Positions 374 to 41,686 of a stretch of DNA of 64,000 bases are shown here, piece after piece. The notes below the pieces were generated by a model. The model searched no databases. It saw only the letters and a list, made by a program, of their open reading frames with translations, and was not told the origin of the DNA. Origin of the DNA: Bdellovibrionales bacterium (GTDB taxonomy: Bacteria; Bdellovibrionota; Bdellovibrionia; Bdellovibrionales; UBA1609); NCBI GenBank assembly GCA_965261545.1, contig CBDHDF010000011.1:224001-288000 (forward strand), read 5' to 3'. Every line of letters starts with the position of its first letter. Within the stretch, counting starts at the first letter, position 1. A program made the translations under genes and the position numbers.

Positions 374-391
374 ATGCATACTTCTTGCCAA
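374..391 (-). promoter_or_regulatory. sigma54 (-24/-12) promoter, divergent from the response regulator
   Basis: Minus strand TTGGCAAGAAGTATGCAT has exact GG-N10-GC spacing; next to a GAFTGA-type activator gene. Confidence 0.65.
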
Positions 392-442
392 CTTTAAAAT
401 TGACCTAAGTTATTGAATATACTCATTTCTTGATTTTTCAAA

Positions 443-655: not shown

Positions 656-2206
656 ATGATGCACTATGAGAATACAGACCCTAAAGTGAGTGCTCTCATT
701 ATTGATGACGAAGAGTCAGCACTCAAAATCAATCGCATGAGCGTGATGGACCTTCTTGAAAGATCAAAACTCTCCCCCGATGAGGTCCGTGTTCACCTGG
801 CTTCAAATATCAATGATGCCTTCTCAGTACTCCGCAGACACACATTGCATGTCATTCTACTCGATCGCGACCTTGGCCTGGATGATAGCGGAAAAAATGT
901 GGATGGGATGGACTACATTCAAGAAATGCTTGATATTCAACCCTCCGCTCAAATTCTTGTGGTGACAGGTCATGATGATACAAGGCTTGCCGTGGAAGCC
1001 ATTCAAAGGGGGGCTTGTGGATATATTGTGAAAAGCACAAGTTCCGATTATCTGGAGTACAGAAATCATCAAATTCTCAAAGCCCTCAGAAAAGCCAAGC
1101 TAGAACTCCAAAGAGCCCAAGAAAAAATGTTGGATAAAATACCCATGGGGGAATATGTTTGTAAATCTCCAGCCATGCGGGGCATAGAGATACAGCTCAA
1201 GACACTGGCCCAATACTCCACACCTGTTTTGTTTTTAAGTGAGTCCGGCCTGGGCAAAACCGTGATGGCCAAGAGACTGGGGCACCTGAGAGCTGAGTTT
1301 TTACAGCAAAAAAACCGCCCCTTCTTTAATATCAATATGGCGAATATACCCAAAGACCTTGCCGATAGCACACTCTTTGGCCACGAACGAGGGGCTTTCA
1401 CTGGGGCCGATACAGCCAAACAAGGACTTTTTGAACTCGCCAATGGTGGGGACCTATTCCTTGATGAAATTGGAGAGGCAAGCCTTGAGGTTCAAGCAAA
1501 ACTCTTAAAAGTGATTGAGGAAAGAGAGTTTTGTCGTGTAGGAGGAAATAAAAACTTTGCCACAACGGCTCGCATTATCCTTGCGACAAACAAAAACCTA
1601 AAAAAGATGGTAGAGAAAAAGGAATTTCGTGAAGATTTGTATGCGAGAATTTGCACCTTTGACATCACTCTTCCACCCCTTGAAGAACGAAAGGAGGACA
1701 TTCCCTATATCTGCCAATCTATTATCAACGATCTTCAGAAAGACAATCTGAGAAAACCTTTTTCCTATGAAGACCTTCCCCATGATTTAAAGGAATATCT
1801 CCATCGAGACAACATACCCTTTAACATCCGAGGAATCAGAAATGATCTTGAAAGGCTTATGATTAGCTCTAAATCTGACAAAAATGGAGCTTTGGATTTT
1901 TCCAACTGGAAAAACATCTTAGGGGTTTCAAAAAGGTCTGTCTTTCATAGTAAAAAGCCTACAGAGTATATTGAATACTCAGATTTTGAGAATCTTCCCA
2001 CTCGGTTTTTAACTGAAAAATTTCCAGGAATTAAAGAGTTCAAGAGACTTTTTGAGAAAAAACTCATGGAAGAAGCTTCTCTGAAGTGTCAGACCAAAAA
2101 AGAGATGGCCCAGCTCTTGGGCATATCAGAATCTAATATTTTATCCAAAATGGATAAATACAGTGTTTCCCTTGGGAAATATAAAGAAACATCAACAAAT
2201 AAATAA
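656..2206 (+). CDS. NtrC-family sigma54-dependent response regulator (REC-AAA+-HTH)
   Basis: REC motifs IIDDE, LLDRDL, VVTG, YIVK; Walker A SESGLGKT; GHERGAFTGA; LFLDEIGE; FREDLYAR; C-terminal HTH; GGAGG RBS. Confidence 0.95.
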   Translation: MMHYENTDPKVSALIIDDEESALKINRMSVMDLLERSKLSPDEVRVHLASNINDAFSVLRRHTLHVILLDRDLGLDDSGKNVDGMDYIQEMLDIQPSAQILVVTGHDDTRLAVEAIQRGACGYIVKSTSSDYLEYRNHQILKALRKAKLELQRAQEKMLDKIPMGEYVCKSPAMRGIEIQLKTLAQYSTPVLFLSESGLGKTVMAKRLGHLRAEFLQQKNRPFFNINMANIPKDLADSTLFGHERGAFTGADTAKQGLFELANGGDLFLDEIGEASLEVQAKLLKVIEEREFCRVGGNKNFATTARIILATNKNLKKMVEKKEFREDLYARICTFDITLPPLEERKEDIPYICQSIINDLQKDNLRKPFSYEDLPHDLKEYLHRDNIPFNIRGIRNDLERLMISSKSDKNGALDFSNWKNILGVSKRSVFHSKKPTEYIEYSDFENLPTRFLTEKFPGIKEFKRLFEKKLMEEASLKCQTKKEMAQLLGISESNILSKMDKYSVSLGKYKETSTNK

Positions 2207-2220
2207 CAAATAACGGAGGA

Positions 2221-2535
2221 ATGGCCATGAAAATATTAAAAATATGCCTGCTTTCAATCGGTTCTTTTATTTTAGCTCCCATGTTCTTGTCCGCTGAGCA
2301 TGAAAGGTCTCCAGAAGATGATGCCCAAGAAGGAGTTAAAATCACCATGGAACCAGGTTGCTACATGTTTAGTAATTCAAGAAAAGAGTTCATCATTTGC
2401 CGAGAGGAAGCCTTTGAAGTGGCCCCTCTCTATCTGTGGCGATATAAAGTGATGCCTGTTGACCCACAAGATATTGAATCTTTTGATGAATTATCAGAAA
2501 GTGCTCCAACAACATTCTCAGAAGATGGGAGATGA
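2221..2535 (+). CDS. Small exported protein with signal peptide, unknown function
   Basis: GGAGGA RBS; basic N-terminus plus hydrophobic stretch ending FLSA; acidic mature part with two Cys; ATGA overlap with next gene. Confidence 0.75.
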   Translation: MAMKILKICLLSIGSFILAPMFLSAEHERSPEDDAQEGVKITMEPGCYMFSNSRKEFIICREEAFEVAPLYLWRYKVMPVDPQDIESFDELSESAPTTFSEDGR

Positions 2536-4037
2536 GAAGAGTTTTTGTTGCAAGCCTTATTTGTTCCACTATATTTCTTGGAGTTGCTTTGAGCTATCAT
2601 AGTGAATTATCAAAAAAAGACCCACCGAGTGGGCTCACAGTGGTCTTTCCTAACCTTCATTTTGAGAAGTCTTGGGATATTTCCGATGGGTCCAGTCTTT
2701 GGAGTATTTTCATACTGAATAATATTGTTGAAACTTTGGTGCGAGTTGGCAATAATTCTGACGTAAAGCCTGCTTTATCAGATGGATGGTCTTTTTCTGA
2801 AGATAAGAAGGTTCTCAGTCTATCTTTATCTGATAAATATACCTTTCATGATGGAACTTCTATCACCCCAGAAGATATTATTCTAAGCCTGAAGCGCTCT
2901 TTATCATCTCCAAAAATGAAGCATTCAGAGGTCTACAAATCCCTACTCAATGAAAAGATGGACGAATCTATAGTCCTCAAAGGAAATAGTATAGAAATTA
3001 GGCTTAAAGAACCTCTCAATGCACTTATTTATCAATTAAGCGTTCAAGAAATGGGTATCGCTCCAAGAGATTATATAAGTAAATCTCCAAAAGAGAGCCT
3101 TAGAAATTTATCTGGACCTTATCAGATTATAGATTTTACACCTCAGAAAATGAGTCTTAAGAGGCATCCATCACACCCTTTACTCAATGATGATTCTCCC
3201 GCTCAAGTAGATATTGTTGAGATAAATAATATGAGAGAGGCTATAAAATATTACAATGAACAAGAGGATGTTATTCTTATTGGTTCTGACTATGCAAAAA
3301 GTCTCAAATACCTAGACCTTGAGGGAAAAAAGTACCTTAGTGCCTTTGCCCTCACAGAATTTTTTCTGCCAAATATTGACTCAGAAAGATTAAATTCTAC
3401 AGAAAAAAGACAAGTCATATTTTCATTGATTAAAAAAGCCTTCAGCGAGGTCACAATAGATGAAAGGGTGGCAGAAAGAACCAATCAAATATTTACAAAA
3501 AATAATATTTCAAGACTCAGTGAAGAAAATTTAAAGGAAATTTATAATACTCCTCTCTTCTCCCAAAAAATGCAATTGGATGTGCTTATTCTTGGGTTCA
3601 TGAAAGACAATCCTATCCCATCCTTGCTCAAAGATAAGTTGAAAGAACTTAACATTGATTTAAATCTTATCGTTTCAGATTATAAGAAAAATGCAAAATT
3701 TCTTCAAGAAAAGAAATACGATCTTTTGTATGTATATTCTGGAGTCAGTGCCTTGGATCCCATTGTAGAAATGATTTACTTATTCAATCATCCTCTGTCC
3801 AATTTTTCATACGATAACGAAGAATTAAAAACCTTTCTAGATCAAGCCAAAAAAGAACTTGATCGGAAAAAATATGTTTCTCTTCTGAAAGAAATTCACC
3901 TTGGTCTCTTAAAAAAATACAGAATTTTACCTCTTATGCATACCAAAATGGTTTACTGTGCCAAGGGGCGATATGAACTCAAAGAAATGAACTACTTTGA
4001 TGGAAGCTTCAATCTATGGGATTGGCATCAAAAATGA
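2532..4037 (+). CDS. Family 5 (oligopeptide/nickel-type) extracellular solute-binding protein, orphan
   Basis: ETLVR...PALSDGWSFSEDKK...FHDGTSITPEDI...SL and SGPY motifs of SBP_bac_5; no permease or ABC ATPase nearby. Confidence 0.88.
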   Translation: MRRVFVASLICSTIFLGVALSYHSELSKKDPPSGLTVVFPNLHFEKSWDISDGSSLWSIFILNNIVETLVRVGNNSDVKPALSDGWSFSEDKKVLSLSLSDKYTFHDGTSITPEDIILSLKRSLSSPKMKHSEVYKSLLNEKMDESIVLKGNSIEIRLKEPLNALIYQLSVQEMGIAPRDYISKSPKESLRNLSGPYQIIDFTPQKMSLKRHPSHPLLNDDSPAQVDIVEINNMREAIKYYNEQEDVILIGSDYAKSLKYLDLEGKKYLSAFALTEFFLPNIDSERLNSTEKRQVIFSLIKKAFSEVTIDERVAERTNQIFTKNNISRLSEENLKEIYNTPLFSQKMQLDVLILGFMKDNPIPSLLKDKLKELNIDLNLIVSDYKKNAKFLQEKKYDLLYVYSGVSALDPIVEMIYLFNHPLSNFSYDNEELKTFLDQAKKELDRKKYVSLLKEIHLGLLKKYRILPLMHTKMVYCAKGRYELKEMNYFDGSFNLWDWHQK

Positions 4038-5056
4038 GAGTATCTACCCTCATAGAGGATCACTTTTCTGAAATAGAAACCCACCTTGGAGCCAAATATA
4101 GCTTCATGGATATTAAAAAATCCATTGATAAATTTCTCCATGACGGAAGATTAAAGATAAAGAAAACGAATGAATGCCCTGCATTGATACCATTTTTTTG
4201 GTATAAGGGTGAATTTTCTATCAATAAAAAAATAATAAATTCCAGTGGTGAGGGTCATCGTCAAGAAGTGGCACAAATGAGATGCATAGGAGAACTTTTC
4301 GAGAGAATTCCTATTTTTCATGATGATATGAATTGTCTAAGAATTGATTCTTCTAAAAAAGTTGAGAATCATACACACAAGATGACAGCTTCCAATGGCG
4401 TAAGCTTTTCACTGGACCCATTCCTAGGTATCTTTAACTCATACAGAGAAATCATTGAACGACAAGTGGTTCTTGATTTTTGGTTGAGGAAGAAAGAGTG
4501 TCAAGAAATAACAGGTCTTTACAAGTGGGGTGCCTTAAACTTCCTATCAGGTTTTAAGAATAATCTTAAAGCTCATTTTTATTGCCTTCCCAATGACTAC
4601 GGACTCTTTGTCATTTGTTGTCACTTGTCACAAGATAAAGTTCCTTACAATATATTTGGCTATGGGTGCCATGAGAATATTTATTCATCTCTAGAAAAAG
4701 CCTTCTTTGAAGCATGGCGATTTTATTGGGAATTTCATAAATTGAAAGGCAAGAGTTACAACAAATATAAAGGTGTCACAAAATTTATAGACCATTTTTA
4801 TTTTTATGCTTTTAAGGAAGATATTGAGAATGTTTATTTTCCTACTCAAAAGAGAAGGTTCTCTCAAATAAAAGGGAGCCTTCATAAGACCAATGACTTT
4901 CATATAGACGAGATATATATATTTGATCTTAAAAAATTTGGCATTCCTGGCTACTCTGTGCAAGTTATAAAAAACAACCTTTGGCCCTTTAAGCCTGGTG
5001 CTTTGAAAGAGGATACAATGGAGAGAGAGTGCGGTGAAGTCCATCCTGTGGCCTAG
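4034..5056 (+). CDS. YcaO-like protein (short, divergent)
   Basis: CIGELFER, TASNGVSF...YREIIERQ, GYGCH...LEKAFFEAW and terminal HPVA resemble YcaO ATP-binding Glu motifs and Pro-containing C-terminus; ATG 4034 overlaps the SBP stop. Confidence 0.75.
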   Translation: MRVSTLIEDHFSEIETHLGAKYSFMDIKKSIDKFLHDGRLKIKKTNECPALIPFFWYKGEFSINKKIINSSGEGHRQEVAQMRCIGELFERIPIFHDDMNCLRIDSSKKVENHTHKMTASNGVSFSLDPFLGIFNSYREIIERQVVLDFWLRKKECQEITGLYKWGALNFLSGFKNNLKAHFYCLPNDYGLFVICCHLSQDKVPYNIFGYGCHENIYSSLEKAFFEAWRFYWEFHKLKGKSYNKYKGVTKFIDHFYFYAFKEDIENVYFPTQKRRFSQIKGSLHKTNDFHIDEIYIFDLKKFGIPGYSVQVIKNNLWPFKPGALKEDTMERECGEVHPVA

Positions 5057-6524
5057 ATATCTAAGCAAGAAGAAGCTTATCTCTCTCATTATTTTCTTGG
5101 CCATTATTTTAAATCTATCTCTGACCCTCTTCATTGTGCATACCCAAAAAGAGAACTTTCTCAAAGAGTCCGCTCTATCTCAGTCTCAGTTAGCTCTCAG
5201 TCTGCTTTCCAGAGATATTAATGAGGGGAATTACCGAAGAGTCATGGAGCAGCTTCTTAGCAAAGAGCTATCTCATGGTGTCAAAATAGATTCCATCTTG
5301 TTTTATGACCTCATATCAAAAAAAGAAATTACTTCCAATGCCAGTCCAAAATTCATTTGTGAATCGAATGCGACATCTTCCTATTACCAAAGGGGTCCCA
5401 GCGACCAACATGCCTATTGTATTTTCATCAACAAAGGGCTTCTCGTTCAAATCACATTCAATTTAGATTCATTTGGAGCTCTAGGAACACCTCAGATTCT
5501 CACGGTGTTCTTGCTGAACTTCCTTTTCGCCATTGTTCTCACAGTCCTGACACTGCTTGGTATGAATCTATATCTTGACCGATTTATTTTACTTCTTAAC
5601 CGCCTCTTGAAAAAAGGAGAGATTGATAAAAATGTTCCTCAAGAATTTAAAGGGTCCTTTAAGTCCATCAAGAATCTTTCCCATGCTCTGGACGAAATGA
5701 AAAAGATGATTTCTGAGAGCACAAGAGCGAGAGTCTCCCATGAGATATCTAAGAAAGTTCTTCACAATATTAAAACACCTCTAAGTAATATCAACACCAT
5801 GCTCCCTCTTCTAAAAAATGGCTTTGATAAAGAAAAAGAAGAGATGCTGAGGGGCTCCATCCAAGAAATTGAAGAATCTGTTTGCAAGGCCCTCGAATAC
5901 AAGAAAAACAGGCCACTTGCCAAAGTTAACCTCTATGAGATTGTTGAGCAAGCTGCATCTGAGATTCGATTTCAAAACTTCCAAAGACAGGATCTTGTCA
6001 TCTCAGAAATTCAATCCTGTCCCTTTTCCTCTTCATACACAAAGGAAGTCGATCCCATAGACTTTAAAGCCGCCATCAACAACATATTAAACAATGCCAT
6101 CGAAGCTATGAGCTTGAATCCCTCCTCTCATCCGACGGGCTTCCATTCAGACCATGGAAGTCATAGCAATCACGGTAGTGGTCACAGTATCGATAAAGAT
6201 TATGGCCACCACGACAACCCAGACGATAGTCACATAGGCCACATAGATGGGATTGGCCGCAGTCATCGTAGTCACACAGGCGAGATTGCAATCCATATGA
6301 AAAAACAAGATAACTCCATTTCCATATGCATCACAGATGAAGGTCCAGGCTTCAGCGACCAAGTCCTCCCTCACATAGGCACCCAAGGCTTCACCTACGG
6401 GAAAAAAGGTGGCCACGGCCTAGGTCTTTACACAGCTAGACTCGACATCGAATCATGGGGTGGTAGGATAATCTTTGGCAATCAGAAAGATTCCCATGGA
6501 GCTTGGATTTGTGTTGTGATTTGA
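5034..6524 (+). CDS. Membrane sensor histidine kinase with a His-rich insert in the HATPase domain
   Basis: Two TM segments around a periplasmic domain; H-box LHNIKTPL; N-box NILNNAIEA; G1 DEGPGF; G2 GHGLGL. Confidence 0.92.
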   Translation: MKSILWPRYLSKKKLISLIIFLAIILNLSLTLFIVHTQKENFLKESALSQSQLALSLLSRDINEGNYRRVMEQLLSKELSHGVKIDSILFYDLISKKEITSNASPKFICESNATSSYYQRGPSDQHAYCIFINKGLLVQITFNLDSFGALGTPQILTVFLLNFLFAIVLTVLTLLGMNLYLDRFILLLNRLLKKGEIDKNVPQEFKGSFKSIKNLSHALDEMKKMISESTRARVSHEISKKVLHNIKTPLSNINTMLPLLKNGFDKEKEEMLRGSIQEIEESVCKALEYKKNRPLAKVNLYEIVEQAASEIRFQNFQRQDLVISEIQSCPFSSSYTKEVDPIDFKAAINNILNNAIEAMSLNPSSHPTGFHSDHGSHSNHGSGHSIDKDYGHHDNPDDSHIGHIDGIGRSHRSHTGEIAIHMKKQDNSISICITDEGPGFSDQVLPHIGTQGFTYGKKGGHGLGLYTARLDIESWGGRIIFGNQKDSHGAWICVVI

Positions 6525-26903: not shown

Positions 26904-28073
26904 TCACGGTACAAACTTCATTCCCAAACTCGATGGCATAGATAGCACATTGTCGGTCATATCTGGTTGCGGCAAACGATAGCCCACCTTTTGAGTGGCT
27001 CCATGTATACTCACACCAGCAAGCCTCAAATACTCATCTGTGGTGGACATTTTGCGATGTCCCACAATGGCCATCACCTTCACCAAAGGCACTCCGTGTG
27101 CCAGCATGTTGGTAATAAATGTGGCCCTGAGATCGTGAAAGCGTATGACTGTAATGCCTATCGCTCTACAAAACGCCCTCAAGACTTGAGCCTGCTCACC
27201 ATGCTCCCATTCCTTCAATCTCGGCAGGAGCAGATCATCAAAAGTCACCTTCTGCCTTAAACGCATATCCCAAAACTCTTGAGAATAGCTTTCTTGTTTA
27301 GCTCTTAAGCCTTTGAGGAAAGCACTCAAGTCATCGTTGATGGGAACCATCCGATTCTCACGGTTCTTCGGGGGAGCAATGCCATCCTTAGATGTCCATT
27401 GCTTGTTGACAGAAATCAAACCCGTTTCCATGTCAATATCTTGCCAACGCATGGCAAACATCTCTCCCGACCTCATCCCTGTCATCAAAGCAAAAACCCA
27501 AACCTTGTAAAACCGATGTTGGCACTTACAAGCTTCTTCCAAAAGAGTTCCAGCTTCTTGAGCATTCAACACTTGTTTTTGAGCTTGAGGGACTTTCACC
27601 TTAATGCTTAGAGCCGGATTCTTGGCGAGAATCCCTTCTTCCACAGCCATTTCAAAGATTCGTTTCACCATCTTTAAAAGATTGCTTTGGTAGCGCTTTG
27701 AGACTCTATCGCCAACATCTTCAAAGAGAAATTTACGAATATCCTGAACATTGATTTCTTCAAGATACTTGTCCATAAACTCTTTGGAAAGCCACTTTTT
27801 GAGCCCACCATCATAACCCATCACAGTGGAAGCTTTATAAGAAAGTCCCATCTTCTTAAGGCATTCTTGGTGCCATTCTCTCCAAGTCCAACGAAGATAT
27901 CCACCCTTAATAAGTTGGTGAAGTTCGTTCTTAAACTGAAATTCAAGTTCTTTTGCTTTTCTTTCTGAAGTTATGCCCTTTTTCTTTCGACTGTGTTGCC
28001 TTCGTCGAGAGTCTTTCATGCGAACAACAACTTCATAAAGTTTTTTTCTATTCTTAATATAAGATCGGATCAT
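26904..28073 (-). CDS. Tyrosine recombinase/integrase
   Basis: TGMRSGE, RFHDLRATF, VGH...TTDEY catalytic R-H-R-H-Y; N-terminal arm-binding region. Confidence 0.96.
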   Translation of the reverse strand: MIRSYIKNRKKLYEVVVRMKDSRRRQHSRKKKGITSERKAKELEFQFKNELHQLIKGGYLRWTWREWHQECLKKMGLSYKASTVMGYDGGLKKWLSKEFMDKYLEEINVQDIRKFLFEDVGDRVSKRYQSNLLKMVKRIFEMAVEEGILAKNPALSIKVKVPQAQKQVLNAQEAGTLLEEACKCQHRFYKVWVFALMTGMRSGEMFAMRWQDIDMETGLISVNKQWTSKDGIAPPKNRENRMVPINDDLSAFLKGLRAKQESYSQEFWDMRLRQKVTFDDLLLPRLKEWEHGEQAQVLRAFCRAIGITVIRFHDLRATFITNMLAHGVPLVKVMAIVGHRKMSTTDEYLRLAGVSIHGATQKVGYRLPQPDMTDNVLSMPSSLGMKFVP

Positions 28074-28315
28074 GAGTGTCCTCCTTGGTTATGGAGAAAG
28101 CACTCTAAATCTTGCAGCTTGAATCTCAGACGGTTTCCAATTTTATAAGACCGAACCTTTCCACGGCACACCCAAATGCGAAGAGCATTGGGGGTCATCC
28201 GAAGATAGTTCGCAGCCTCTTTTGTTGAAAACCATTTTTGAGGTACTGTTAGTTCATCCAAATTGTCAAAGAACGCATCCCTTTTTGGGATCAGCTTACT
28301 CATTGATAAGCTCAC
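28070..28315 (-). CDS. Excisionase-like HTH (HTH_17) protein
   Basis: WFSTKEAANYLRMTPNALRIWV...YKIGNRLRF; overlaps integrase start. Confidence 0.85.
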   Translation of the reverse strand: MSLSMSKLIPKRDAFFDNLDELTVPQKWFSTKEAANYLRMTPNALRIWVCRGKVRSYKIGNRLRFKLQDLECFLHNQGGHS

Positions 28316-28407
28316 CTATAGTTATAGGTTGAATACCAATGAAAGGCAACATTTTTTGATATCTATAGTTCAAATAAATACTCAAAAAAATGCAATTCTT
28401 TATGATT

Positions 28408-28779
28408 TCATTCTTCATAATTCACCTCCTCAGAAGGGGCTTTCACAGGCTCTTGGAGAGCTACAGAAGGCTTCTTTTTTGCTCTATAAGATCGCCCCTT
28501 ATTTAATTCATTCACTTGTTTTATAAAGTCCTCTGGAGAGTTCGTGGTGGATAGCAAGTGCTTAATGTAACGCTTCTTATCAAAAAGTTTTTCACTTAAT
28601 CCTTTTTTTTCTTTGGAAAAATATTTTTGAGCGTATCCTATCAAAATCAAACTTGCCACTCGGGACGGTGAGTCCCTCAAGTAAGGGTTCTCTTCCACAA
28701 GAACCCTTATCATCTCATTTAAATGCTCCACAGCTTGCTCATCTATATATAAACGCCCTGTCTTTGTTGCCTTGGCCAT
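28408..28779 (-). CDS. Hypothetical ICE protein
   Basis: GGAGG RBS, coupled to upstream gene. Confidence 0.65.
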   Translation of the reverse strand: MAKATKTGRLYIDEQAVEHLNEMIRVLVEENPYLRDSPSRVASLILIGYAQKYFSKEKKGLSEKLFDKKRYIKHLLSTTNSPEDFIKQVNELNKGRSYRAKKKPSVALQEPVKAPSEEVNYEE

Positions 28780-29447
28780 TATTTCACCTCCTTTGTTTTC
28801 ATTATGGTTGGATTCATGGGTCCTAAATTCTTGAGGCCCGTGCCATGACGAGAGCCCCTTGAGCCTGCTCCCATTTTGTGAGACCTCCGAGGTTGTTTCT
28901 TGGAAAAGCCTGTAGGAAATCTTTTGGAAGAACTCTTAGAAGAGTTCTTAGGAAAACTCTTCGGGGGAACCAAGTTAAACTGTGGATACCCAATAAGAGT
29001 CCAAACCCTGTGACCTTCAATGAGCTTCTTTCCATCCTCAGTGGTGTGAGTTTCCACATAATCTTCACGCACCTTGGGACTATTAATGAAGGCCCTCATC
29101 TTTTCCAAATCAGATGAAGAGATTCCATCAATACCATTGGCCCCACTCCATTTATTGACGTCTACACTGGAAGAACTTGGAGAAAGCCCGTAGGACTCAA
29201 GGTTAAAAAGAGTTTCTCGACGAGCACGGCTTTCTCGTTGGTCTATGAACTGGTGGAGAGCATAGCCTGCAACTCCACCTAACAAAGCCCCTGCCATAGC
29301 TCCCCTTACAAGTCTTGGATCATGGGGTCCTTTGGATATGGGAGCCGCTGACACAACCCCCAGACCGACACCCATACCACTTCCTGCAAGAATTGACTTT
29401 TTCATACTTGAACAACCTAAAGCTCCTATTAAAAACGCACACAACAT
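28779..29447 (-). CDS. Lipoprotein with glycine zipper (possible VirB7/TraV-like or exclusion protein)
   Basis: Lipobox ALGC; GAMAGALLGGVAG. Confidence 0.7.
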   Translation of the reverse strand: MLCAFLIGALGCSSMKKSILAGSGMGVGLGVVSAAPISKGPHDPRLVRGAMAGALLGGVAGYALHQFIDQRESRARRETLFNLESYGLSPSSSSVDVNKWSGANGIDGISSSDLEKMRAFINSPKVREDYVETHTTEDGKKLIEGHRVWTLIGYPQFNLVPPKSFPKNSSKSSSKRFPTGFSKKQPRRSHKMGAGSRGSRHGTGLKNLGPMNPTIMKTKEVK

Positions 29448-29734
29448 GATTTTTATGACACTTTGAATGTGACACCTCCATGGTTTATTTGTGATTTATA
29501 TTCCATAAATATCTTCTTACATGCCTATTTCTATTTCTTTTCTTATGCACTGATTGCATTGACTCTGAATCTTATGACTCTCTAACTACATAACAATAAC
29601 GACTCTTTGTGCAGCCTTCTTCCTCACCTTGGAGGTCTTAAGGCTCCTAAATATAAACGCATACATTATAATTCTTAGTACATCCTGACTTCACACCTCC
29701 AAATTTATCAAACTACTCCAGACTACCCCGGCCC

Positions 29735-29870
29735 CAATTTTAATCCTGACAAAATTAGAGATGAGTTATTTCATATACTTAGGGCCAAAAACCCCAAAAA
29801 ATTGATCCTGATAATGTAAGTAGACAATCAGGATGCAAATCAGGATGTAATCAAGATATAATCAGGATCA
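29735..29870. repeat. Iterated AATCAGGAT repeats with inverted copies; candidate oriT/ori
   Basis: Four direct copies 29826-29869 and inverted ATCCTGA near 29743 and 29805, in the intergenic gap next to the relaxase. Confidence 0.5.
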
Positions 29871-29925
29871 CAGTCACGCTCCAAAAAAAATATTCATTGT
29901 TATTCATAGAAATTTTATTTGTTCC

Positions 29926-30705
29926 TCAAGGAAATTTTTCCTGCTGTAAATGGATCTTCAAAATGTGATTATCTGCATCCTTAAGAACAAAAAAATCTTT
30001 CGCCTGCTTCATCTCTTGGTAAGTGACAGCGAAAATCTTTGAACTTCGATCACTACGAACCTCCTTATCAACCTTAAAGATAGATGAACGCAAAGATTCA
30101 GAAGACGTAATATAAAAGACAAAAACGACATTTGAAGAACAGTAGTATTTCAAGAATAAATCGTTATATCTTGACCTACTTTTTGCAGACTGTTCAAACT
30201 CAATGGCTCCTGAAAACTCACCTCCAGTTAGATTTATTCTCAAAAAAGCATCACTGTGACACTCAATAAATGCATCATAATTAAATACCTTACTCCCAAA
30301 AAGCCCTGATTGGAGTTCATTTTCTGTCAAATAATGGACAAGGCCCTTAGCTCTTAAGAACTGCTTTCGGACTTCAACCAATGAAAATTCATGATCTGAA
30401 TTTGCAGACCTAAGCTCCAATCTCTTCGGTTCCACTCCAAAAAGATCACACTTTCCAAGAATCTTATGTGTCAGTTGGTAAGCTGTTCTAGCTCCTTCAA
30501 ACCAAGAGGGAATACCTTTTATAAAACCATACTTAGATAACTTCCTTAATCTCTCATGAACCACTTGCCTAGAAAGTCCTGCAAATACATCCCGGTGGAT
30601 TTGCCAACGAGTGGCCCCCTTGGTGATAAAAAGATATTTTAACAATTCCTTATCTCTATTCGTTAAACGCATCTTATAATGACGACTATTCCCCATGAAT
30701 CTCAA
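29926..30705 (-). CDS. Replication-relaxation / MOB_C-like relaxase (wHTH plus PD-(D/E)XK)
   Basis: LTNRDKELL...RLRKL wHTH; SDA...AIEFEQSAKSRSRY motif. Confidence 0.75.
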   Translation of the reverse strand: MRFMGNSRHYKMRLTNRDKELLKYLFITKGATRWQIHRDVFAGLSRQVVHERLRKLSKYGFIKGIPSWFEGARTAYQLTHKILGKCDLFGVEPKRLELRSANSDHEFSLVEVRKQFLRAKGLVHYLTENELQSGLFGSKVFNYDAFIECHSDAFLRINLTGGEFSGAIEFEQSAKSRSRYNDLFLKYYCSSNVVFVFYITSSESLRSSIFKVDKEVRSDRSSKIFAVTYQEMKQAKDFFVLKDADNHILKIHLQQEKFP

Positions 30706-32209
30706 CCTTCTGGCTTTGGGAGGTATCTATAGGTGCCGAAAAAGATCCAACACTATCATTGTGCTTACCTTCCGAAGTGAGTTTTTCAGGTGGCTTTTCT
30801 AATGGTTTTGAGGAAGAAGAAATGAACTTTCTCATCCTTTCTTTAATCTCCTCTGTGGAAATAAAAGGTGTTTGAACCTCATCCATATCAACACCCACCT
30901 TGCTGATGGCACGACCTGCAATCTTTGGAAGGTCGCGAGCGGCCTTCGTACCAATAACAAGAGCTGAACCTTGAACAGATATAACTTTGAAACAAAGTCT
31001 CCCCTCAATGTTTTCCTGAATGTGGGTGCTCACCGTGTGTTTGCTAATTTTCTGAGTCCCTAGCACCAAATGAATCCGAGCCGCCCGTGATAGCTTGGCA
31101 ATCTCATCTGTGATTTGAGTGGCCTTCAGTGAACTTTTCCTTTGAAGATCGGTTTTCCGAGAAAAGTCATACAACATCGAACACTCATCTATGAGAATCA
31201 AGATGGGGTCTTTTTTGTGCTTCTGGGGGTCAATGACGTCATCATCTCCTTTTTCTAATATCTTAAAGCGTTCTTGCATTTCGCATTGAATCTTTTCTAA
31301 AATCTCAACAGCCTCAAAAATATCTTTTATCACCGTCACCCTTGGATGTTCCCGAAAGGGCTTCATAGAAATACCCTGTTTAAAATCAAGGGCATAAACC
31401 TGAAGATTCGGAGTGTTTTCCAAGAGATTAAGAAGCATTTGCCTAAGAAAGCATGACTTCCCCATGCCTGTGCTTCCAGCCACCAGCATATGAGGCAGAT
31501 CAAAAAGATTTTGGGTGATTGTCTCCCCATGACTCTGACCTACAACAAACTCTCCGGATTTGGAGGCTTTTGCGCAAACACTGGCATAGGCTACCTTTTG
31601 AGGTAGTAGCTGATTTGTAAGAAAAAGCTCCACAAACTTGGGCTGAGACTGCTCAACAATGGATTCCACTTGGGAGTTTAAAGACGCTCTAATGGCATTT
31701 TTCTTTTTTTGAAAATCCTCTATAGGAACCCCGTGGGTGTCCACAATCACTTTATGGCGAAAAGAGGTTAAGTTCACCACATCCACAGCAATGGGTTGAG
31801 TTCCCAAGGCATTTTTTAACCCCGCTTTTCTTAAAGCCTTTGTGACCCTCTTCATCTTTTTTATGCTTCCATAGGATAAAATATAGATGATAATTGCAAG
31901 CAAGGGGGTACTCAAAATGAGGAAGTGAACTTCCCATGATAGACTTCCCATGGTTCTTACAAAAGACAATGGAACAGTTTCGGGATACCATTTGTTGAGC
32001 CATATAAGATAAGTGTTCTTATAGGCCCAAACAAACATCAACAAAAAAAGGCTTATAATGTTCATTATACCATTTCCTGTGAGAGTTTTCGACCTCTTCA
32101 CAGCATGGTAACAACGCACATAAATGATAATAATGATTTTTCTAAGAGCATTAAAAACGTCCATAGGGCTTATGCCCCCTTTTGATTTACTCATAATTGT
32201 TCCTTTCAT
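30686..32209 (-). CDS. FtsK/SpoIIIE-family ATPase, probable coupling protein
   Basis: Two N-terminal TM helices; PHMLVAGSTGMGKS; LDFK; ILIDEC; RAARIHLVLGTQ. Confidence 0.9.
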   Translation of the reverse strand: MKGTIMSKSKGGISPMDVFNALRKIIIIIYVRCYHAVKRSKTLTGNGIMNIISLFLLMFVWAYKNTYLIWLNKWYPETVPLSFVRTMGSLSWEVHFLILSTPLLAIIIYILSYGSIKKMKRVTKALRKAGLKNALGTQPIAVDVVNLTSFRHKVIVDTHGVPIEDFQKKKNAIRASLNSQVESIVEQSQPKFVELFLTNQLLPQKVAYASVCAKASKSGEFVVGQSHGETITQNLFDLPHMLVAGSTGMGKSCFLRQMLLNLLENTPNLQVYALDFKQGISMKPFREHPRVTVIKDIFEAVEILEKIQCEMQERFKILEKGDDDVIDPQKHKKDPILILIDECSMLYDFSRKTDLQRKSSLKATQITDEIAKLSRAARIHLVLGTQKISKHTVSTHIQENIEGRLCFKVISVQGSALVIGTKAARDLPKIAGRAISKVGVDMDEVQTPFISTEEIKERMRKFISSSSKPLEKPPEKLTSEGKHNDSVGSFSAPIDTSQSQKVEIHGE

Positions 32210-33449
32210 TTTGATGGTTTTTATAATGATGATGGTTTGTTTTTTGCATTTTAAGAGTCTCTGTAAGACTCACAACAAGCTCTTTTCCGGGCTTCAGGGT
32301 GATGTAAGGCCCTTGACCACTAGAAGTCTTTAGCTGCAAGTTACCTTCCTTTTTGACGAACCCTGAAACTCCTCCTAAAAAGGCATTTCTTAGGGTGGGC
32401 TTTGTCGTAATGGTTTTTCCTTCACCGAGGGCTTCTTTTTCTTGGAGAACCTCACTGGCTCCAGAAACAAAACCCAAACCTAGAGTGGACCCCATTCGCC
32501 TGACCAGCCCACTGTGGTAATGGCCCATAAGTCCTGAAGCAAAATCCTTGGCATCCAAGGCCATGGCTGAGATTTTTATCTCCCGTCCATTTGGAAGAAC
32601 TCCCTTGTGGAACTGAATAAAGACCCTTGGCCCGTGTCCTGGATATGAGGGAGCGCCCCAAAGAACACTCCCCTGGGGGAGGCTCATATGCCCTTGAAGT
32701 CTGCCCTCCAAGGGAAGCACCACACGAACTAAAATGTCGGATTGACGGGTGTCCACATGGGAAAGAAGCTTTCCGATGAAAAGAGTTCCTGAAGGCAAGG
32801 TTTTGCTGTCACTGATATCTGGGCGGACAAAGACTTGCTGGGCCTTATACTTAATAGGAACTTTTTTTCTCTGTCTTCTCAAGACAGCCTTTTGGGGAAA
32901 GGGAGAAGGGCCATCGCTAGCAAGATTTTTTCTCTGAAGCTCATTAAATTCATTGAGTTTAGCTATAGCGGAGCCTTCCCCTTCTTGGCTTGAGCCAAGG
33001 GGCTGAGGGTTTCCATTGAGGTTGCTCTCACCTATGATCTCTTCCAGAGAAACCGCTTCATAAAGACTACGATCCTCTCTTGACGAAGATAGCCAACTCA
33101 TAGTGAGTGAAACAAAAACAGAGAGCCACATCACCGAAAGAAAAGCTCTTGCCAGATTTATGGTCACTTTCTTTGGATATTGAGTGAACAAATAGCCTAG
33201 AACAAAAGAGGTACCATTTGAGATACTCTTTGAAAGACTATTTGAGATACTCCTTTGAATCCACCTTTTGCTTTTAAGAAAAAAAATTTTCTTGAATTTC
33301 AAAGATTTTAAAGACTTCAAAGATTTCTTGTCCTGCTTAGTTTTCTTAGAGTCTAATCTCTGAAATGACTTCTTCTTGCCTGAAAAAAGGAATCTAAAAA
33401 TAGAAAGAAAGAATCTAAAACTAAATATTTGATACTTCATTTGTACCAC
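32187..33449 (-). CDS. VirB10/TrbI-like T4SS core protein
   Basis: Single TM then LPSGTLFIGKL, LPQGSVLWG, RVFIQF, GLMG, C-terminal ITLKPGKELVV. Confidence 0.75.
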   Translation of the reverse strand: MVQMKYQIFSFRFFLSIFRFLFSGKKKSFQRLDSKKTKQDKKSLKSLKSLKFKKIFFLKSKRWIQRSISNSLSKSISNGTSFVLGYLFTQYPKKVTINLARAFLSVMWLSVFVSLTMSWLSSSREDRSLYEAVSLEEIIGESNLNGNPQPLGSSQEGEGSAIAKLNEFNELQRKNLASDGPSPFPQKAVLRRQRKKVPIKYKAQQVFVRPDISDSKTLPSGTLFIGKLLSHVDTRQSDILVRVVLPLEGRLQGHMSLPQGSVLWGAPSYPGHGPRVFIQFHKGVLPNGREIKISAMALDAKDFASGLMGHYHSGLVRRMGSTLGLGFVSGASEVLQEKEALGEGKTITTKPTLRNAFLGGVSGFVKKEGNLQLKTSSGQGPYITLKPGKELVVSLTETLKMQKTNHHHYKNHQNERNNYE

Positions 33450-33970
33450 CTCCTAAAGGTTGTGATTGGATCTAATGCTATGATTTGACTTGATGTTGTA
33501 ATCTGCCCTGGTGCAATAATTTTGATTTGACTTGATGTTGTGATCTGACCTGATTGATCTCCATGGGTCTTCATTGATCTCAAAGAGAGCTTCTTAGAAA
33601 ATCTTGTGGGACGTTTCCAATAAACTTTCACTAAGTCATCATAGACTTGGCACCTGCAAACTCTTAAAATAAAACCAAAGCGATGCTGGCCACTGTAGAT
33701 GAATAAATTGCTCGAAAGTTGAGACAAAGGCTGAATGGTCACGTCATTACCTGTAAATTTGATGCTAAAATAATTGCTGTTCCCGTTCACAGCCTTCTTG
33801 GGCCTATCAATGAAATGAAGAATGGTGGAATGCCCCATGGAAAGGGTGATTGTTTCCATCTTATTGTCATTCATTTCAACAACACGCACCCTAGAGTAAG
33901 ATAGAGTCGTAGCAAGAAAAACACTCAAAAAAATAAAAACTAACCAATAAATGCTCCTTTGAATATTCAT
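33437..33970 (-). CDS. VirB9/TrbG-like T4SS protein (short)
   Basis: Signal peptide; ITLSMGHSTILHF...VTIQP...SNLFIY; position between VirB8- and VirB10-like genes. Confidence 0.65.
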   Translation of the reverse strand: MNIQRSIYWLVFIFLSVFLATTLSYSRVRVVEMNDNKMETITLSMGHSTILHFIDRPKKAVNGNSNYFSIKFTGNDVTIQPLSQLSSNLFIYSGQHRFGFILRVCRCQVYDDLVKVYWKRPTRFSKKLSLRSMKTHGDQSGQITTSSQIKIIAPGQITTSSQIIALDPITTFRRWYK

Positions 33971-34563
33971 TATTTATTAAACTCCTTAATGGCACTGATA
34001 TAAATGCCTTTTGGGTTCCACTTGTTGGGTTTATCTCTCATTAATTCAAGATGGATTTTTAAAGGCTGAACCGATTTGACCCTCTTGCCCAATGAAATAA
34101 CACGGTCTATTTCCACATGAACATATCCGTCCTTGGCTTCTATGTTTTGAATCACTACATCTTGAGAAATAGAGTTTTTCTTTATAAATTCTTTGGAATC
34201 CTTTATTTGTTGAAGCACCTTTTTTAGTAAACTATAAGACGCATAGGGGCTTATGTTTCGCATGATGTTTTCCATATTGTAGGACTTCCATTGATAACGC
34301 TCTAAAACAAATCTCTTGGCTGCCTTTTTAAGGTCGGATTCTTGAAGTTCCACCTCCTTTCTTTCTCCGACAAAATAAAAACTTTCTGACTCTGTGAGAG
34401 CAATCACTAGATTTTTCTGATTCATTAAATAAATCATAGTTCCCACAAGAAGCACATTGGACAGAATGAGCCCAAGAGATATTGTTCTTAAATTCCTAAT
34501 AATAAGACTGGCCTTGATCCAATGATTGCAAGGGCCTAAACGCTTTGATTTCATGTTCATCAT
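33970..34563 (-). CDS. VirB8/TraE-like bitopic T4SS protein
   Basis: N-terminal TM, FVLERYQW, C-terminal NPKGIYI. Confidence 0.7.
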   Translation of the reverse strand: MMNMKSKRLGPCNHWIKASLIIRNLRTISLGLILSNVLLVGTMIYLMNQKNLVIALTESESFYFVGERKEVELQESDLKKAAKRFVLERYQWKSYNMENIMRNISPYASYSLLKKVLQQIKDSKEFIKKNSISQDVVIQNIEAKDGYVHVEIDRVISLGKRVKSVQPLKIHLELMRDKPNKWNPKGIYISAIKEFNK

Positions 34564-35684
34564 TTTTTATCACCTCCTTGAGGGCTTTCTCCCCCTGGTT
34601 TGTTAAAATCTTCTTTTTGTCTCTTCATGCTTTGGCTCCCATAGCGACTCTGAAAATAACTTTTGGAATGGCCCTCGGAGTGGTCTCGGAAGTGGCCTTG
34701 AAAATGACTCTGGGAAGGATCTTGAAAATGACCTTGGGAATGACTCTGAGAACGACTCCGAGAATAGTTTTTGGGTTGAGATTGAGTCCATTCACTGAGC
34801 TTCTTAAAACCTCTTGATTGAGCAAAATTCCCAAAATTTTTGAGGTTTCTTGCTGTGATCTTGACTCCATGACTTGCCACTTGTTTCCCTTTTTGGGATG
34901 AGAGGGTCGCAGCCTTTTTTATATGCCCTGTAATGATTTTTTGAGAAGCAATGGCTGGAATGGCCGCCAAGCCTCCTGCAAAAGTTGCAAAATCAGAGGA
35001 TAAAAAAGCCTTGGTTGTGATCGGAACGACAAGCATACTTGTACCAATGAAAAGATTGATGACAATGAGAAGTATGGCATTGTAGTCATCTCCTTGGGTA
35101 ATGGGAGCATGGGCTGTAAGCTTCAAAAGAATGACTCCAAGAGCCGTCCAAGTGATTTTCCAGACCATAACAATGCATAGACTTCGGTAAAGCCCCTTGG
35201 TGATCTGTGAGGTGGCCTCGGAGATATAGGCAAGTATCATCAAAGGGGACATGACAAATAAAATTCCCCAACAAAAATGCACCAAGGCATCAGCAATAAA
35301 AGCCCCCAAGTAGGCAAAAATAAAAGAAAGGAGGCTTAAAACCCAAATAAGGGTTTCTTTAAATTGATGCCAACTAAGCTCCATATCTTTGACAAACTTC
35401 CACATCTCGCTAAGCACCTCATTGATATGAGGCGTGGGGCTGATATGAGTGACAATGCCGTCACCAATCAGAGATATCATGCGAAAGACCTCATCAAAAC
35501 TCATAAGCAATATGATGGATAAAGCCGCTCTTTTGATAATGCCAAGGGCATTGGGTTCACGCTCTGGCAACTTAAAAAATTCTAAAATAATCAGCAAAAG
35601 AGTGAGGGGCACAATAGATATCCAATAGATTTCTATCATGTTAGACCGGATCTCTTTACAAACCTCTGGTAGCCACTCGTACAT
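34560..35684 (-). CDS. VirB6-like polytopic membrane protein
   Basis: Several TM helices, FVMSPLMIL motif, low-complexity S/Q/H tail. Confidence 0.7.
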   Translation of the reverse strand: MYEWLPEVCKEIRSNMIEIYWISIVPLTLLLIILEFFKLPEREPNALGIIKRAALSIILLMSFDEVFRMISLIGDGIVTHISPTPHINEVLSEMWKFVKDMELSWHQFKETLIWVLSLLSFIFAYLGAFIADALVHFCWGILFVMSPLMILAYISEATSQITKGLYRSLCIVMVWKITWTALGVILLKLTAHAPITQGDDYNAILLIVINLFIGTSMLVVPITTKAFLSSDFATFAGGLAAIPAIASQKIITGHIKKAATLSSQKGKQVASHGVKITARNLKNFGNFAQSRGFKKLSEWTQSQPKNYSRSRSQSHSQGHFQDPSQSHFQGHFRDHSEGHSKSYFQSRYGSQSMKRQKEDFNKPGGESPQGGDKK

Positions 35685-36553
35685 TAAAACACCGGAGGAG
35701 TTGCAAAAGTTGCTTCAAAGGTGTTCAAACTATGGCCCAAGTCACGGGTCACTTTCTTAAAATGATGGTTGGACTCCTTGGCCGCCTTGTTGGACAATGC
35801 CAAGGATTCACTTTGAAGTTTTAGCATTTGACCATTGATCTTTAAAATCTGACTGAGAATATGAAGAATGGCTGCCTGCCCCTCAAGGTTTGTGCGAGCC
35901 GCACCTTTAAGGCCCATATGAGGGGCACTTGCTGCCATACGCCTTGAGTTCTGTTCCTGCGAATGGGCGTAGGAATTTATGGAGCTTACCATTTTAATAC
36001 TCTCTGCCACTGTCTCATCGTGAAGCCTTAACAATAGCTCTTCTTTCCCACGGGGGATTTGACCATAAAGGCGTTCAACCTCATCCATGGCCCCTTTAAA
36101 TGATTTCAAGTCTCCAAGGATTTTCCCACCTTCAATGGGAAAGCTTTCTAAAAGGCCCATGGCCTCATTAAGACCCATATTGATAGACTCGATCATATCC
36201 TTATGTTCCTTGGCATTTTCATAAATTACTTTCATTTGTTCGTATTGTTTGACGGACTGAGAAAGAATCTTAATGAGGTAAGGGGTTGTCATGGCTCCAT
36301 CAATACCTAAAAGCGCATGGCTTTTGTGGGGAGTGAAAGTGACAACAGTCCCTACAAACAGTAAGAATCCTAGGGCGAACAACAGGCGAGAAAATAATGG
36401 GTTCAAGGTGAACAACAGGCGAGGGAATAGCAGGCTTAGGGGGAACAATAGGCGATGAAATAACAGACTTAGAGCGAGTAACAAGTTTGGTGTGACAGAC
36501 TTACATATAAATTCACATAGAAACGCATAGAAAGGAATTTTAATTTTTTTCAA
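35684..36553 (-). CDS. VirB5/TrbJ-like exported helical protein
   Basis: Extended repeated signal region ending SHA; YLIKIL...QYEQMK helical body; position after VirB4. Confidence 0.55.
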   Translation of the reverse strand: MKKIKIPFYAFLCEFICKSVTPNLLLALSLLFHRLLFPLSLLFPRLLFTLNPLFSRLLFALGFLLFVGTVVTFTPHKSHALLGIDGAMTTPYLIKILSQSVKQYEQMKVIYENAKEHKDMIESINMGLNEAMGLLESFPIEGGKILGDLKSFKGAMDEVERLYGQIPRGKEELLLRLHDETVAESIKMVSSINSYAHSQEQNSRRMAASAPHMGLKGAARTNLEGQAAILHILSQILKINGQMLKLQSESLALSNKAAKESNHHFKKVTRDLGHSLNTFEATFATPPVF

Positions 36554-37749
36554 CTTTGCCCTCCTTGGGTTATCTTATGGCTTACAATTTCTTCCAAGAC
36601 CTCCAAATAACTGTGGTCTGGGAATTTCTCTTTAAATTGATGAATAATGGCCTTGTCCTTGGGGTCCGTGGTGCAAATCCAATAGGACAAGGGATCAGGT
36701 TCAATCTTGAGGATGGACTCTTTGTCATCTTGAATATAAAGACATTCTGAAAAGCCTCCCTTCTGTGAACGCAGAGATTTGACAACCTCAATCTCTGTTT
36801 CATTGAGTGAGAGAATTTCTTGAAATTCCTTCCAGTCCACCCCACGCTGCTTTAAAATGATTCGACTGGGTGTGTTTTGCATAATGGCGGCGGCCACCTC
36901 TGGATCAAACATAAAATCTTTAATGGATTGAGTGATTCCCCAAATTCCACCATAGAACTTCCTCATAGTGCGGTAGCACTCAATGACAAATTGGGCGGCA
37001 CTCTCGTTTTGTAAGAGCTTCCAAATCTCATCCACAATGAGAAGGTATCTCTGGGAGGGATTTTTAGACGCCTCATTCATAATATACTCAGTTAAAATGA
37101 GTAAAAGGACTCGCTGAAGATCGGGGTAAACATCAAGCCCCTTCACTTCAATGGCCACAAGGGGTTTTGTGAGTTCAATATTGGTGGGACCATCAAGAAG
37201 CTTTCCGTAGGCACTGGCCCCTGTCCAAGAATACAAAATATCAGCGTACCTTCTCATTTCAACAAGGGGGTGGTTCTTCAATATCTTGAGAAGATCGGTC
37301 ATTGTGGGAGACCCACAAGGTGACGCACAAGAAGATCCACGGGAGGGAACGCAGGAGGAAGTACTGAAAAAGGGAATGTTGAAAAATTGAGTGTAGGTTT
37401 CAGAAATGGCTTGTTCCAAAAGAGCTTTTTCTCTTTTGGGTAACCCCTTTGAATCATCTTCTTTGCAGATGGATTCAATAACTCCTAAAAGGAGTTTTTT
37501 CTTAGTGGGGGAAGCTTCCATCTCTCCCCGGCCCAATTGAAAGGCGTTCAGGACAATGCCACTTTCAAGATTCAAGTCAATGAATTGCCCCCCCAGTGAG
37601 TCCACAAGTCCACGGGAAGAAGCCCCATTGTCTATCCAAACCACCTTGGAAAGTCCAAGGTGGTTTTTTGTCTTCGCCTTCTTCATATTCTTCATATTTG
37701 ATTTCCTATTCATGTCTGGTTTCCTGCTTATGTTTGATTCCCTATTCAT
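36550..37749 (-). CDS. virB4: VirB4 ATPase, C-terminal part
   Basis: VVWIDNGAS, LNAF, PTMTDL, Walker B LLIVDEIW, RKFYG...ITQS; own AGGAG RBS. Confidence 0.85.
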   Translation of the reverse strand: MNRESNISRKPDMNRKSNMKNMKKAKTKNHLGLSKVVWIDNGASSRGLVDSLGGQFIDLNLESGIVLNAFQLGRGEMEASPTKKKLLLGVIESICKEDDSKGLPKREKALLEQAISETYTQFFNIPFFSTSSCVPSRGSSCASPCGSPTMTDLLKILKNHPLVEMRRYADILYSWTGASAYGKLLDGPTNIELTKPLVAIEVKGLDVYPDLQRVLLLILTEYIMNEASKNPSQRYLLIVDEIWKLLQNESAAQFVIECYRTMRKFYGGIWGITQSIKDFMFDPEVAAAIMQNTPSRIILKQRGVDWKEFQEILSLNETEIEVVKSLRSQKGGFSECLYIQDDKESILKIEPDPLSYWICTTDPKDKAIIHQFKEKFPDHSYLEVLEEIVSHKITQGGQS

Positions 37750-39857: not shown

Positions 39858-39858
39858 T

Positions 39859-41476: not shown

Positions 41477-41682
41477 GACTGTAATTCTCCTAAAGGTTGG
41501 ATTTTTATTTTTTTTAGTTTTTTTAATTTTATTAATCTTCTTAATTTTTCTTTAACTTGTTTGCGATATTTCTTATCGTAGAATTTATTATTCTTCTGCA
41601 TATCACATCTTCTACTAATGACTTCCAAATCATTTATTTCTTTACCTTTCTTAAACGCACCTAAATTTCGTAGTTTCGACAT
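41473..41682 (-). CDS. Small basic hypothetical protein
   Basis: In operon, overlaps next start. Confidence 0.45.
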   Translation of the reverse strand: MSKLRNLGAFKKGKEINDLEVISRRCDMQKNNKFYDKKYRKQVKEKLRRLIKLKKLKKIKIQPLGELQS

Positions 41683-41686
41683 TACA

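Follow-up and report, generated by a model that had tools for sequence, protein, structure and literature searches.

Within a 64,000-nt stretch of a Bdellovibrionales genome (contig CBDHDF010000011.1, positions 224,001 to 288,000; hereafter the window; completeness of the genome 96.8%), we analysed a cassette of five plus-strand genes for an NtrC-type sigma-54 activator, a small exported protein, an orphan family-5 substrate-binding protein (SBP), a stand-alone YcaO enzyme and a sensor histidine kinase. These genes form the regulatory end of an integrative conjugative element (ICE). As a system the cassette is real and conserved and, it appears, undescribed; it works in the manner of quorum control of conjugation by peptides, outside the known families. 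We consider it fairly probable that this ICE-borne cassette is a signalling device that gates conjugation via a modified peptide.

Chance is far from explaining the order of the cassette genes, which is found four times in the window genome and again in many other genomes; the conserved synteny that a first-pass annotation of this DNA had anticipated is borne out both within the genome and among 84 annotated loci. These comprise four loci from scans and 80 picked by hand among the best-ranked profile matches, with long flanks preferred; they form a non-random sample that includes kin. An SBP gene lies on the same strand within 2.2 kb of the YcaO gene in 72 of the 84 loci, SBP and kinase genes are both present in 67, and activator and SBP genes in 32. 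Besides the window cassette, the genome carries a second close cassette (copy 2, C11:482758-476837) and two cassettes of a distant type (C11:438665 and C2:29382). A small open reading frame (ORF) with a signal-like N-terminus, recognized by a crude rule, precedes the SBP gene in 63 of the 72 loci; after removal of one doubtful call and four duplicates, 58 small proteins were analysed. The small proteins of the cassettes measure 50-205 residues.

The best evidence for the identity of the substrate is that the tail chemistry of the small protein follows the enzyme class. Cysteine accounts for 7.2% of the last 15 residues of the 58 small proteins, for 0.8% of their middles and for 1.7% of control tails; it occurs in the last 15 residues of 47 of the 58, as against 48 of 235 control ORFs, and in 39 of 49 when the small proteins are counted by cluster. 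CxxC is found in six of the 58 tails. The close subfamily shares a core of the form P-x-[T/C], namely PTTFS in the window and PTTIS, PVTVC (twice), PTCIT, PICGP and PICDP elsewhere; its proline is invariant (7/7 aligned relatives), and an eighth member, L065, has no such core at its C-terminus. The interchange of Thr, Ser and Cys within the core would be as expected of cyclodehydration sites.

Three sister cassettes in the window genome have the same chassis with a radical S-adenosylmethionine (SAM)/SPASM enzyme in place of YcaO. They comprise a sigma-54 activator, the radical SAM/SPASM enzyme, a small exported protein, a family-5 SBP and a hybrid kinase; two of the three are interrupted by insertion sequences, and a plus-strand sigma-54 site stands before two of them. 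Relatives of the enzyme occur in 24 of 390 genomes. A small protein was called in 20 of 30 radical SAM loci, and the last 15 residues contain Ser or Thr in all 20 and Cys in none; these tails are Ser/Thr-rich, often with the motif SG-x-[LI]-S. Trp-rich tails, also considered for these cassettes, were dropped, Trp being present in only 4 of the 20. The tail chemistry thus follows the enzyme class and points to the tail as the substrate, which supports the earlier suggestion that the small exported protein is the likely substrate and signal. Comparison of the window cassette with copy 2 gave identities of 54% for the small protein, 64% for the SBP, 74% for YcaO, 81% for the kinase and 86% for the regulator; five transfer proteins are 76-85% identical (VirB4, 85%). 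That the small protein and the SBP diverge most would fit the existence of specificity groups.

All five ORFs of the window cassette are intact and co-oriented, and the last four overlap (ATGA, ATGA and 23 nt), which confirms the arrangement first described (Table 1). The regulator retains the receiver Asp and Walker A and B, carries GAFTGA at 246 and combines AAA+ and HTH domains; RpoN is encoded in the genome. The second ATG of the small-protein gene (2227) has a better-spaced GGAGGA than the first (2221). YcaO starts at the ATG at 4034, which overlaps the SBP stop codon; the start given by the ORF caller, 4016, falls within the SBP gene. The kinase has two membrane helices, a periplasmic domain, the H box HNIKTP and N, G1 and G2 boxes. 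By hydropathy, the small protein and the SBP each have a single hydrophobic segment, at the N-terminus, the kinase has two and YcaO has none; the signal peptide of the small protein was judged by eye from its hydropathy profile. No Pfam or NCBIfam family matched the small protein, no NCBIfam model fitted the eight plus one small proteins compared, and a homologue search with the window protein recovered only itself. As first noted, the cassette itself encodes no permease, TfuA, E1, dehydrogenase or exporter in the ORF and Pfam scan; Opp-type permeases of the host are present elsewhere in the genome. No cytoplasmic tetratricopeptide-repeat receptor (RRNPP), AgrB/AgrD or LytTR match was obtained for the five proteins with Pfam or NCBIfam. 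The ATPase domain of the kinase contains a His-rich low-complexity insert (window 6117-6278; 12 His in 54 residues), which differs in copy 2 (28% identity) and is absent in L003 and L103; similar tandem-like expansions are common among the ICE genes of this genome.

Table 1. Features of the cassette, its upstream region and the sister cassettes (window coordinates unless a contig is named).
Feature	Position	Strand	Remarks
Sigma-54 -24/-12 promoter TGGCAAGAAGTATGCA	375-390	-	Predicted from sequence pattern; 2 mismatches to consensus
IHF-like site TTCAATAACTTA	406-417	-	Between boxes and promoter; 4/4 aligned loci, 2 changes in L062
Two identical 22-nt direct repeats	441-462/470-491	.	Each with palindrome TTCT-N6-AGAA (446-459, 475-488)
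NtrC-type response regulator, 516 aa	656-2206	+	REC, Sigma54_activat (E 4.6e-54), HTH_8 below cut-off (Pfam)
Small exported protein, 104/102 aa	2221/2227-2535	+	Hydrophobic N-terminus, acidic middle; probable precursor
C-terminal core PTTFS of the small protein	2506-2520	+	Candidate core of the window precursor
Orphan family-5 SBP, 501 aa	2532-4037	+	SBP_bac_5 PF00496 (E 5.7e-18); one N-terminal hydrophobic helix
Stand-alone short YcaO, 340 aa, ending HPVA	4034-5056	+	PF02624 (E 7.5e-12); no membrane segment
Sensor histidine kinase, 496 aa, GTG start	5034-6524	+	HATPase_c (E 5.7e-12), weak HisKA match
Radical SAM sister cassettes	C11:301572-307723 (L148), C2:538533-546413, C10:140515-149894 (L149)

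To the left of the window, a divergent operon encodes two sigma-70 region-4 proteins, a TrbC/VirB2 pilin, VirB4/TraC, TrbI, FtsK and Replic_Relax, and ends at a tyrosine integrase beside tRNA-Leu. It is because this operon, which holds type IV secretion genes and a relaxase-like gene, ends at an integrase beside a tRNA gene that we assign the cassette to the regulatory end of an ICE. Neither the operon nor the promoter elements at 375-491 had been noticed in the first-pass annotation. The divergent ORF had been put forward as an alternative substrate or signal; this role is not supported, since the divergent genes are the sigma-70 region-4 proteins that head the conjugation operon. All four YcaO cassettes of the window genome are divergent from pilin/VirB4 operons. 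The element of copy 2 ends at a serine recombinase and tRNA-Ala, with a repeat resembling an attachment (att) site beyond the cassette, and att-like repeats bracket both copy 2 and the C2 cassette copy. For the right att site of the window element, no second copy of the tRNA-Leu 3' end was found on this contig. Transfer genes lie within 9 kb in 25 of the 34 activator-bearing loci, for two more of which the retrieved flank was too short, as against 4 of the 50 without.

Upstream of the regulator, the order of the TTCT-N6-AGAA boxes, the IHF-like site (integration host factor) and the promoter is conserved in four loci, the window, copy 2, L003 and L062; the YcaOs of the latter three are 47-74% identical to the window enzyme. 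The predicted promoter, the sole sigma-54 pattern in the 1 kb that precedes the regulator gene, points leftwards into the conjugation operon starting just outside the window. The boxes are kept in copy 2 and L003 and in part in L062, and are probably the enhancer for the activator; the 12-mer between them and the promoter presumably resembles the IHF consensus. Sigma-54 sites were scanned with the consensus at no more than 2 mismatches in loci that have an SBP gene and 600 nt or more of upstream sequence, against a background of 77 sites in 1.8 Mb (0.043 sites/kb). Of the cassettes that include an activator, 19 of 31 are preceded by a site, as are 2 of the 37 that lack one. In a separate comparison, 9 of 29 loci have a site facing the first transfer gene, where the background would give about 1.6. 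Each of six other regulator modules in the window genome has a minus-strand site, four at 2 mismatches and two at 3.

The first-pass annotation had envisaged a self-contained produce-and-sense loop. For this subtype that claim is not upheld, since the sole upstream sigma-54 site faces away from the cassette, toward the transfer genes; no plus-strand site was found at up to 3 mismatches in C11:223000-231000, and autoinduction was rejected here for want of a site facing the cassette. Among the 19 site-bearing cassettes with an activator, 14 have a site facing the cassette and six have one facing away; autoinduction therefore exists in other subtypes. A sigma-70 scan yielded six sites (1.9 expected) and no clear cassette promoter.

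Both the PF02624 search (45.6 bits, cut-off 25.7) and structure comparison bear out the YcaO fold proposed for 4034-5056. A model built from a 15-sequence alignment (mean predicted local distance difference test score, pLDDT, 81) superimposed on LynD with a Z of 22.7 (root-mean-square deviation 4.0, 305 aligned residues), a near tie with M. kandleri YcaO (Z 21.7) and McbD (Z 21.5); its top Foldseek matches were YcaO structures only (E 2e-11 to an archaeal YcaO). Glu87, Arg91, Gly122, Glu139, Glu142 and Arg143 are invariant in 73 cassette enzymes, and Glu90 and Ser/Thr at 120 are each found in 72, Glu226 in 70 and His337 in 68. These enzymes were gathered with a profile of the same family, a choice that favours residue conservation; most are less than 35% identical to the window YcaO, and they form 56 clusters at 45% identity. 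In a profile alignment, Ser120 and Glu139 correspond to McbD Thr148 and Glu167, both needed for activity according to the accessible part of PMC6395948. The C-termini of the 73 enzymes contain His in 68 and Pro in 45, and the last residue is mostly Gly or Ala. Neither TfuA (PF07812; control positive in 1 of 14 genomes) nor ThiF/E1 (PF00899; control positive in 12 of 14) was found in the window genome, nor were relatives of one SagB query; YcaO therefore appears to work alone. A SagB dehydrogenase above cut-off stands between YcaO and kinase in L069, the sole case among the 84 loci.

The close YcaO subfamily is small, with 15 proteins, 16 representatives at E <=1e-30 and two loci in the genome scan. 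A wider profile matched 77 of 238 genomes of the order Bacteriovoracales and 141 of 390 of the class of the window genome, not all of these matches lying in cassettes. A quick tree places the window YcaO together with that of copy 2 and with three enzymes of the other order, Bacteriovoracales (SH-aLRT, an approximate likelihood-ratio support, 99), which fits mobility and gives no direction. A single-protein YcaO search returned none of 60 relatives, though the profile later matched some; an ESM Atlas search yielded generic YcaO clusters only; and a scan of Joint Genome Institute metagenomes retrieved nothing with query A1 and five distant loci at 25-28% with query A4. A longer YcaO of 590-770 residues is conserved in most of the Bacteriovoracales genomes searched (L016-L045) and apparently absent from the window genome; with any YcaO in 200 of the 238 genomes, the Pfam YcaO scan was swamped by this protein and not used.

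Several related loci depart from the common layout. In L062 (10694-13647) and L063 (5972-8943), two tandem SBP genes follow one small gene, and the additional SBP is possibly a second receptor for the signal of another element. Several units of small gene, SBP and kinase stand in a row in L141, only one of them with a YcaO. A short YcaO with an acetyltransferase-like neighbour, a convergent kinase/receiver pair and no SBP was seen in L076, L079, L087 and L098, three of which also contain a B12 radical SAM gene; this is another architecture. The second YcaO of genome G061 (L012) was set aside, no SBP-sized or kinase gene adjoining it in the ORF list.

The SBP model (pLDDT 88.7) matched AapF, OppA, NikA and PrgZ at template-modelling scores of 0.71-0.77 in Foldseek. 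Peptide, opine and nickel binders scored alike at 13-18% identity, the PrgZ structure 4faj being among the matches, and the best NCBIfam models, NikA and CntA, were far below cut-off.

We propose the following sequence of events. In the cytoplasm, YcaO would use ATP to cyclodehydrate Thr, Ser or Cys residues of the C-terminal core (PTTFS), very plausibly forming oxazolines or thiazolines. The modified protein would leave via Sec, and no dedicated exporter would be needed on this proposal because Sec carries it, a route for which bufferins offer a precedent (PMC11626156); host proteases may then free the core. The tethered family-5 SBP would bind the product and switch the kinase, much as CBP does with ChiS. 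The kinase would control the activator, which, bound at the TTCT-N6-AGAA boxes, would very plausibly drive the transfer operon through its sigma-54 promoter. By analogy with ICEBs1, we modestly favour the view that transfer is repressed, not activated, once the element is present in many cells. Diverged pairs of precursor and receptor would let co-resident related elements be counted separately.

A number of observations weigh against this proposal. The best Foldseek E-values of the YcaO model are those to thioamide-forming archaeal YcaOs; the position of McbD Gln264 is Arg in the window enzyme (Arg in 41 of 73), and its C-terminal residue is Ala, compared with the Pro proposed as the McbD base in the accessible text of PMC6395948. 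In genome G906 the YcaO gene is split by an insertion sequence. Eleven of the 58 tails have no Cys, and neither has the window core. The fold of the SBP fits peptide, opine and nickel binders equally well and so does not discriminate between peptide and metal-chelate binding. The divergence of small protein and SBP between the two copies comes with no rate control. At up to 2 mismatches, 20 of the 29 loci have no sigma-54 site facing the transfer genes, and none was found in the close relative L063. Finally, 50 of the 84 loci have no adjacent activator and mostly no transfer genes, so that conjugation is not the sole output.

The most serious alternative keeps the modified small protein in its own periplasm as a private partner of the SBP or the kinase, the cue being external, such as recipient contact or envelope state, with no signal passing between cells. 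The length of the small proteins, the lack of an encoded dedicated protease or outer-membrane exit, and known SBP-kinase pairs that sense outside ligands, such as CBP/ChiS as described in the accessible part of 10.1101/2020.01.10.902320, speak for such a co-receptor; a precursor would better fit proteins that vary so much in length and sequence around a short chemical tail, and the chassis is also seen combined with another enzyme and another kind of tail, so that we hold this explanation to be unlikely. A role in metal sensing, with the azoline peptide as a bufferin-like chelator whose metal complex is presented to the kinase by a NikA-like SBP, would account for the NCBIfam matches of the SBP, the CxxC-containing tails and the His-rich insert of the kinase. 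This is improbable in our estimate: the window core contains neither Cys nor His, the insert is missing from L003 and L103 and poorly kept between the two copies, and what the cassette controls is a transfer operon and not the handling of metals.

Like the E. coli enzyme, which acts on uL16, YcaO might also thioamidate or otherwise modify a folded protein, be it the kinase, the activator or one of the host, and leave the small protein to act unmodified. The accessible part of PMC13063428 describes a TfuA-free case, and the order of the Foldseek matches and the failure to find E1 or TfuA in the genome point the same way. Little probability attaches to this reading, however, since the enrichment of Cys in the tails follows the presence of YcaO and one cassette includes SagB; the C-terminal tail of YcaO aligns to the ends of LynD and McbD, though the Z scores of both classes are tied. 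A thioamide (+16 Da) is a less likely product than an azoline (-18 Da). Most characterized azoline RiPPs (peptides made by ribosomes and modified after translation) are toxins, for example microcin B17, and the product could in principle be an antimicrobial carried as ICE cargo, with SBP and kinase conferring immunity or regulating production. Because the cassette encodes neither an exporter nor a protease nor a transporter for immunity, and the promoter faces the transfer genes, this is very unlikely.

The modified-peptide quorum-sensing systems agr and ComQXPA hold precursor, modifier, kinase and regulator in one locus. The cassette resembles them in this respect and probably in forming specificity groups, and differs in sharing no precursor or modifier family with them, in its additional SBP, in showing no sign of autoinduction in this subtype and in having DNA transfer as its output. 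According to the accessible part of PMC6540685, ICEBs1 (RapI-PhrI) and pLS20 (Rap-Phr) likewise encode a secreted peptide precursor beside a conjugation regulator. In those systems Opp imports an unmodified peptide, which an RRNPP protein detects in the cytoplasm, whereas the cassette has a modifying enzyme, a periplasmic SBP with a kinase, a sigma-54 output and a diderm host. PrgZ of pCF10, covered in the same source, is also an element-encoded family-5 SBP that lacks its own permease and is tied to conjugation control; PrgZ feeds peptide import, whereas the SBP of the cassette is coupled to a kinase gene and accompanied by YcaO. Like McbD and LynD/TruD, the window YcaO has the fold, the ATP/Mg residues, Ser/Thr at the position of McbD Thr148, Pro near the C-terminus and Cys/Ser/Thr cores; unlike them, it has 340 residues, no E1 or RRE (RiPP recognition element) partner found in the genome, Arg in place of McbD Gln264, a Sec-type precursor and a place inside a sensing operon. 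Bufferins are RiPPs whose precursor has a Sec signal, is heterocyclized and leaves the cell without a dedicated exporter; as far as the accessible part of PMC11626156 describes them, they differ in their enzyme (MNIO, a multinuclear non-haem iron oxidative enzyme), in being folded metallophores and in having no receptor or kinase. In CBP-ChiS and LuxP-LuxQ, too, a periplasmic binding protein controls a membrane kinase, the ligand being a sugar or autoinducer-2 and not a peptide of the same operon (10.1101/2020.01.10.902320, accessible part). A full-text literature search that mostly did not cover subscription journals and did not include supplements retrieved no description of the cassette, and the accessible part of PMC9426513 describes none.

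The surroundings of the cassette contain further mobile DNA. Insertion sequences are dense directly after it (window 6655-26699; also 43601-47973 and 59903-62806) and are of the IS21, IS4-like, IS256-like and IS91-like types, named partly from reading the sequence. A second conjugative operon on the minus strand (26904-42512) includes an integrase, a sigma-70 region-4-like gene and a VirB4 in two ORFs (36550-39272), a split that recurs in a C10 copy. The segment 50514-59592, with an AAA ATPase, an SbcD/SbcC-like pair and a 657-residue protein, has a higher GC content (46-50%) and is probably separately acquired cargo. Two partial tRNA-Leu 5' copies precede the intact gene at a spacing of 166-167 nt (C11:198649-199068). 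A Mom-family DNA-modification gene lies between transfer operon and integrase (L181, 3578-4576, minus strand), with a similar gene in copy 2. In three further units (C11:982993-990010, C10:77227-84243 and C10:226421-232439), a large ankyrin-like lipoprotein stands between a related activator and kinase, and in two of the copies a probable outer-membrane protein does so as well (both named by inspection of the sequence). These units sit in another type of element, one that has PilB- and TraD-like genes, and a sigma-54 site faces those genes.

More tentatively, with confidence a little short of even, we suggest that mobile elements of Bdellovibrionota carry RiPP-like pheromone cassettes with a fixed sensing chassis and swappable chemistry, a form of diderm modified-peptide quorum sensing with a partner-free YcaO synthase. 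The chassis would consist of the Sec-exported precursor, the orphan family-5 SBP, the kinase and the sigma-54 activator, and the chemistry of a stand-alone YcaO, YcaO with SagB, or a radical SAM/SPASM enzyme. Elements sharing a cell would each keep their own count in a distinct chemical language and adjust conjugation to it.

Known peptide control of conjugation concerns Gram-positive elements, whose unmodified peptides are read inside the cell. If the proposal is true, the cassette would be the diderm counterpart, in which backbone-modified peptides are read outside the cell, and a widespread group of short YcaOs would thereby acquire a function. The promoter, the enhancer boxes and the predicted mass shifts make the system directly testable. 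The cassettes offer partner-free heterocyclases of 300-350 residues and an uncharacterized radical SAM family, each with its likely substrate adjoining, as well as a handle on gene flow in predatory bacteria.

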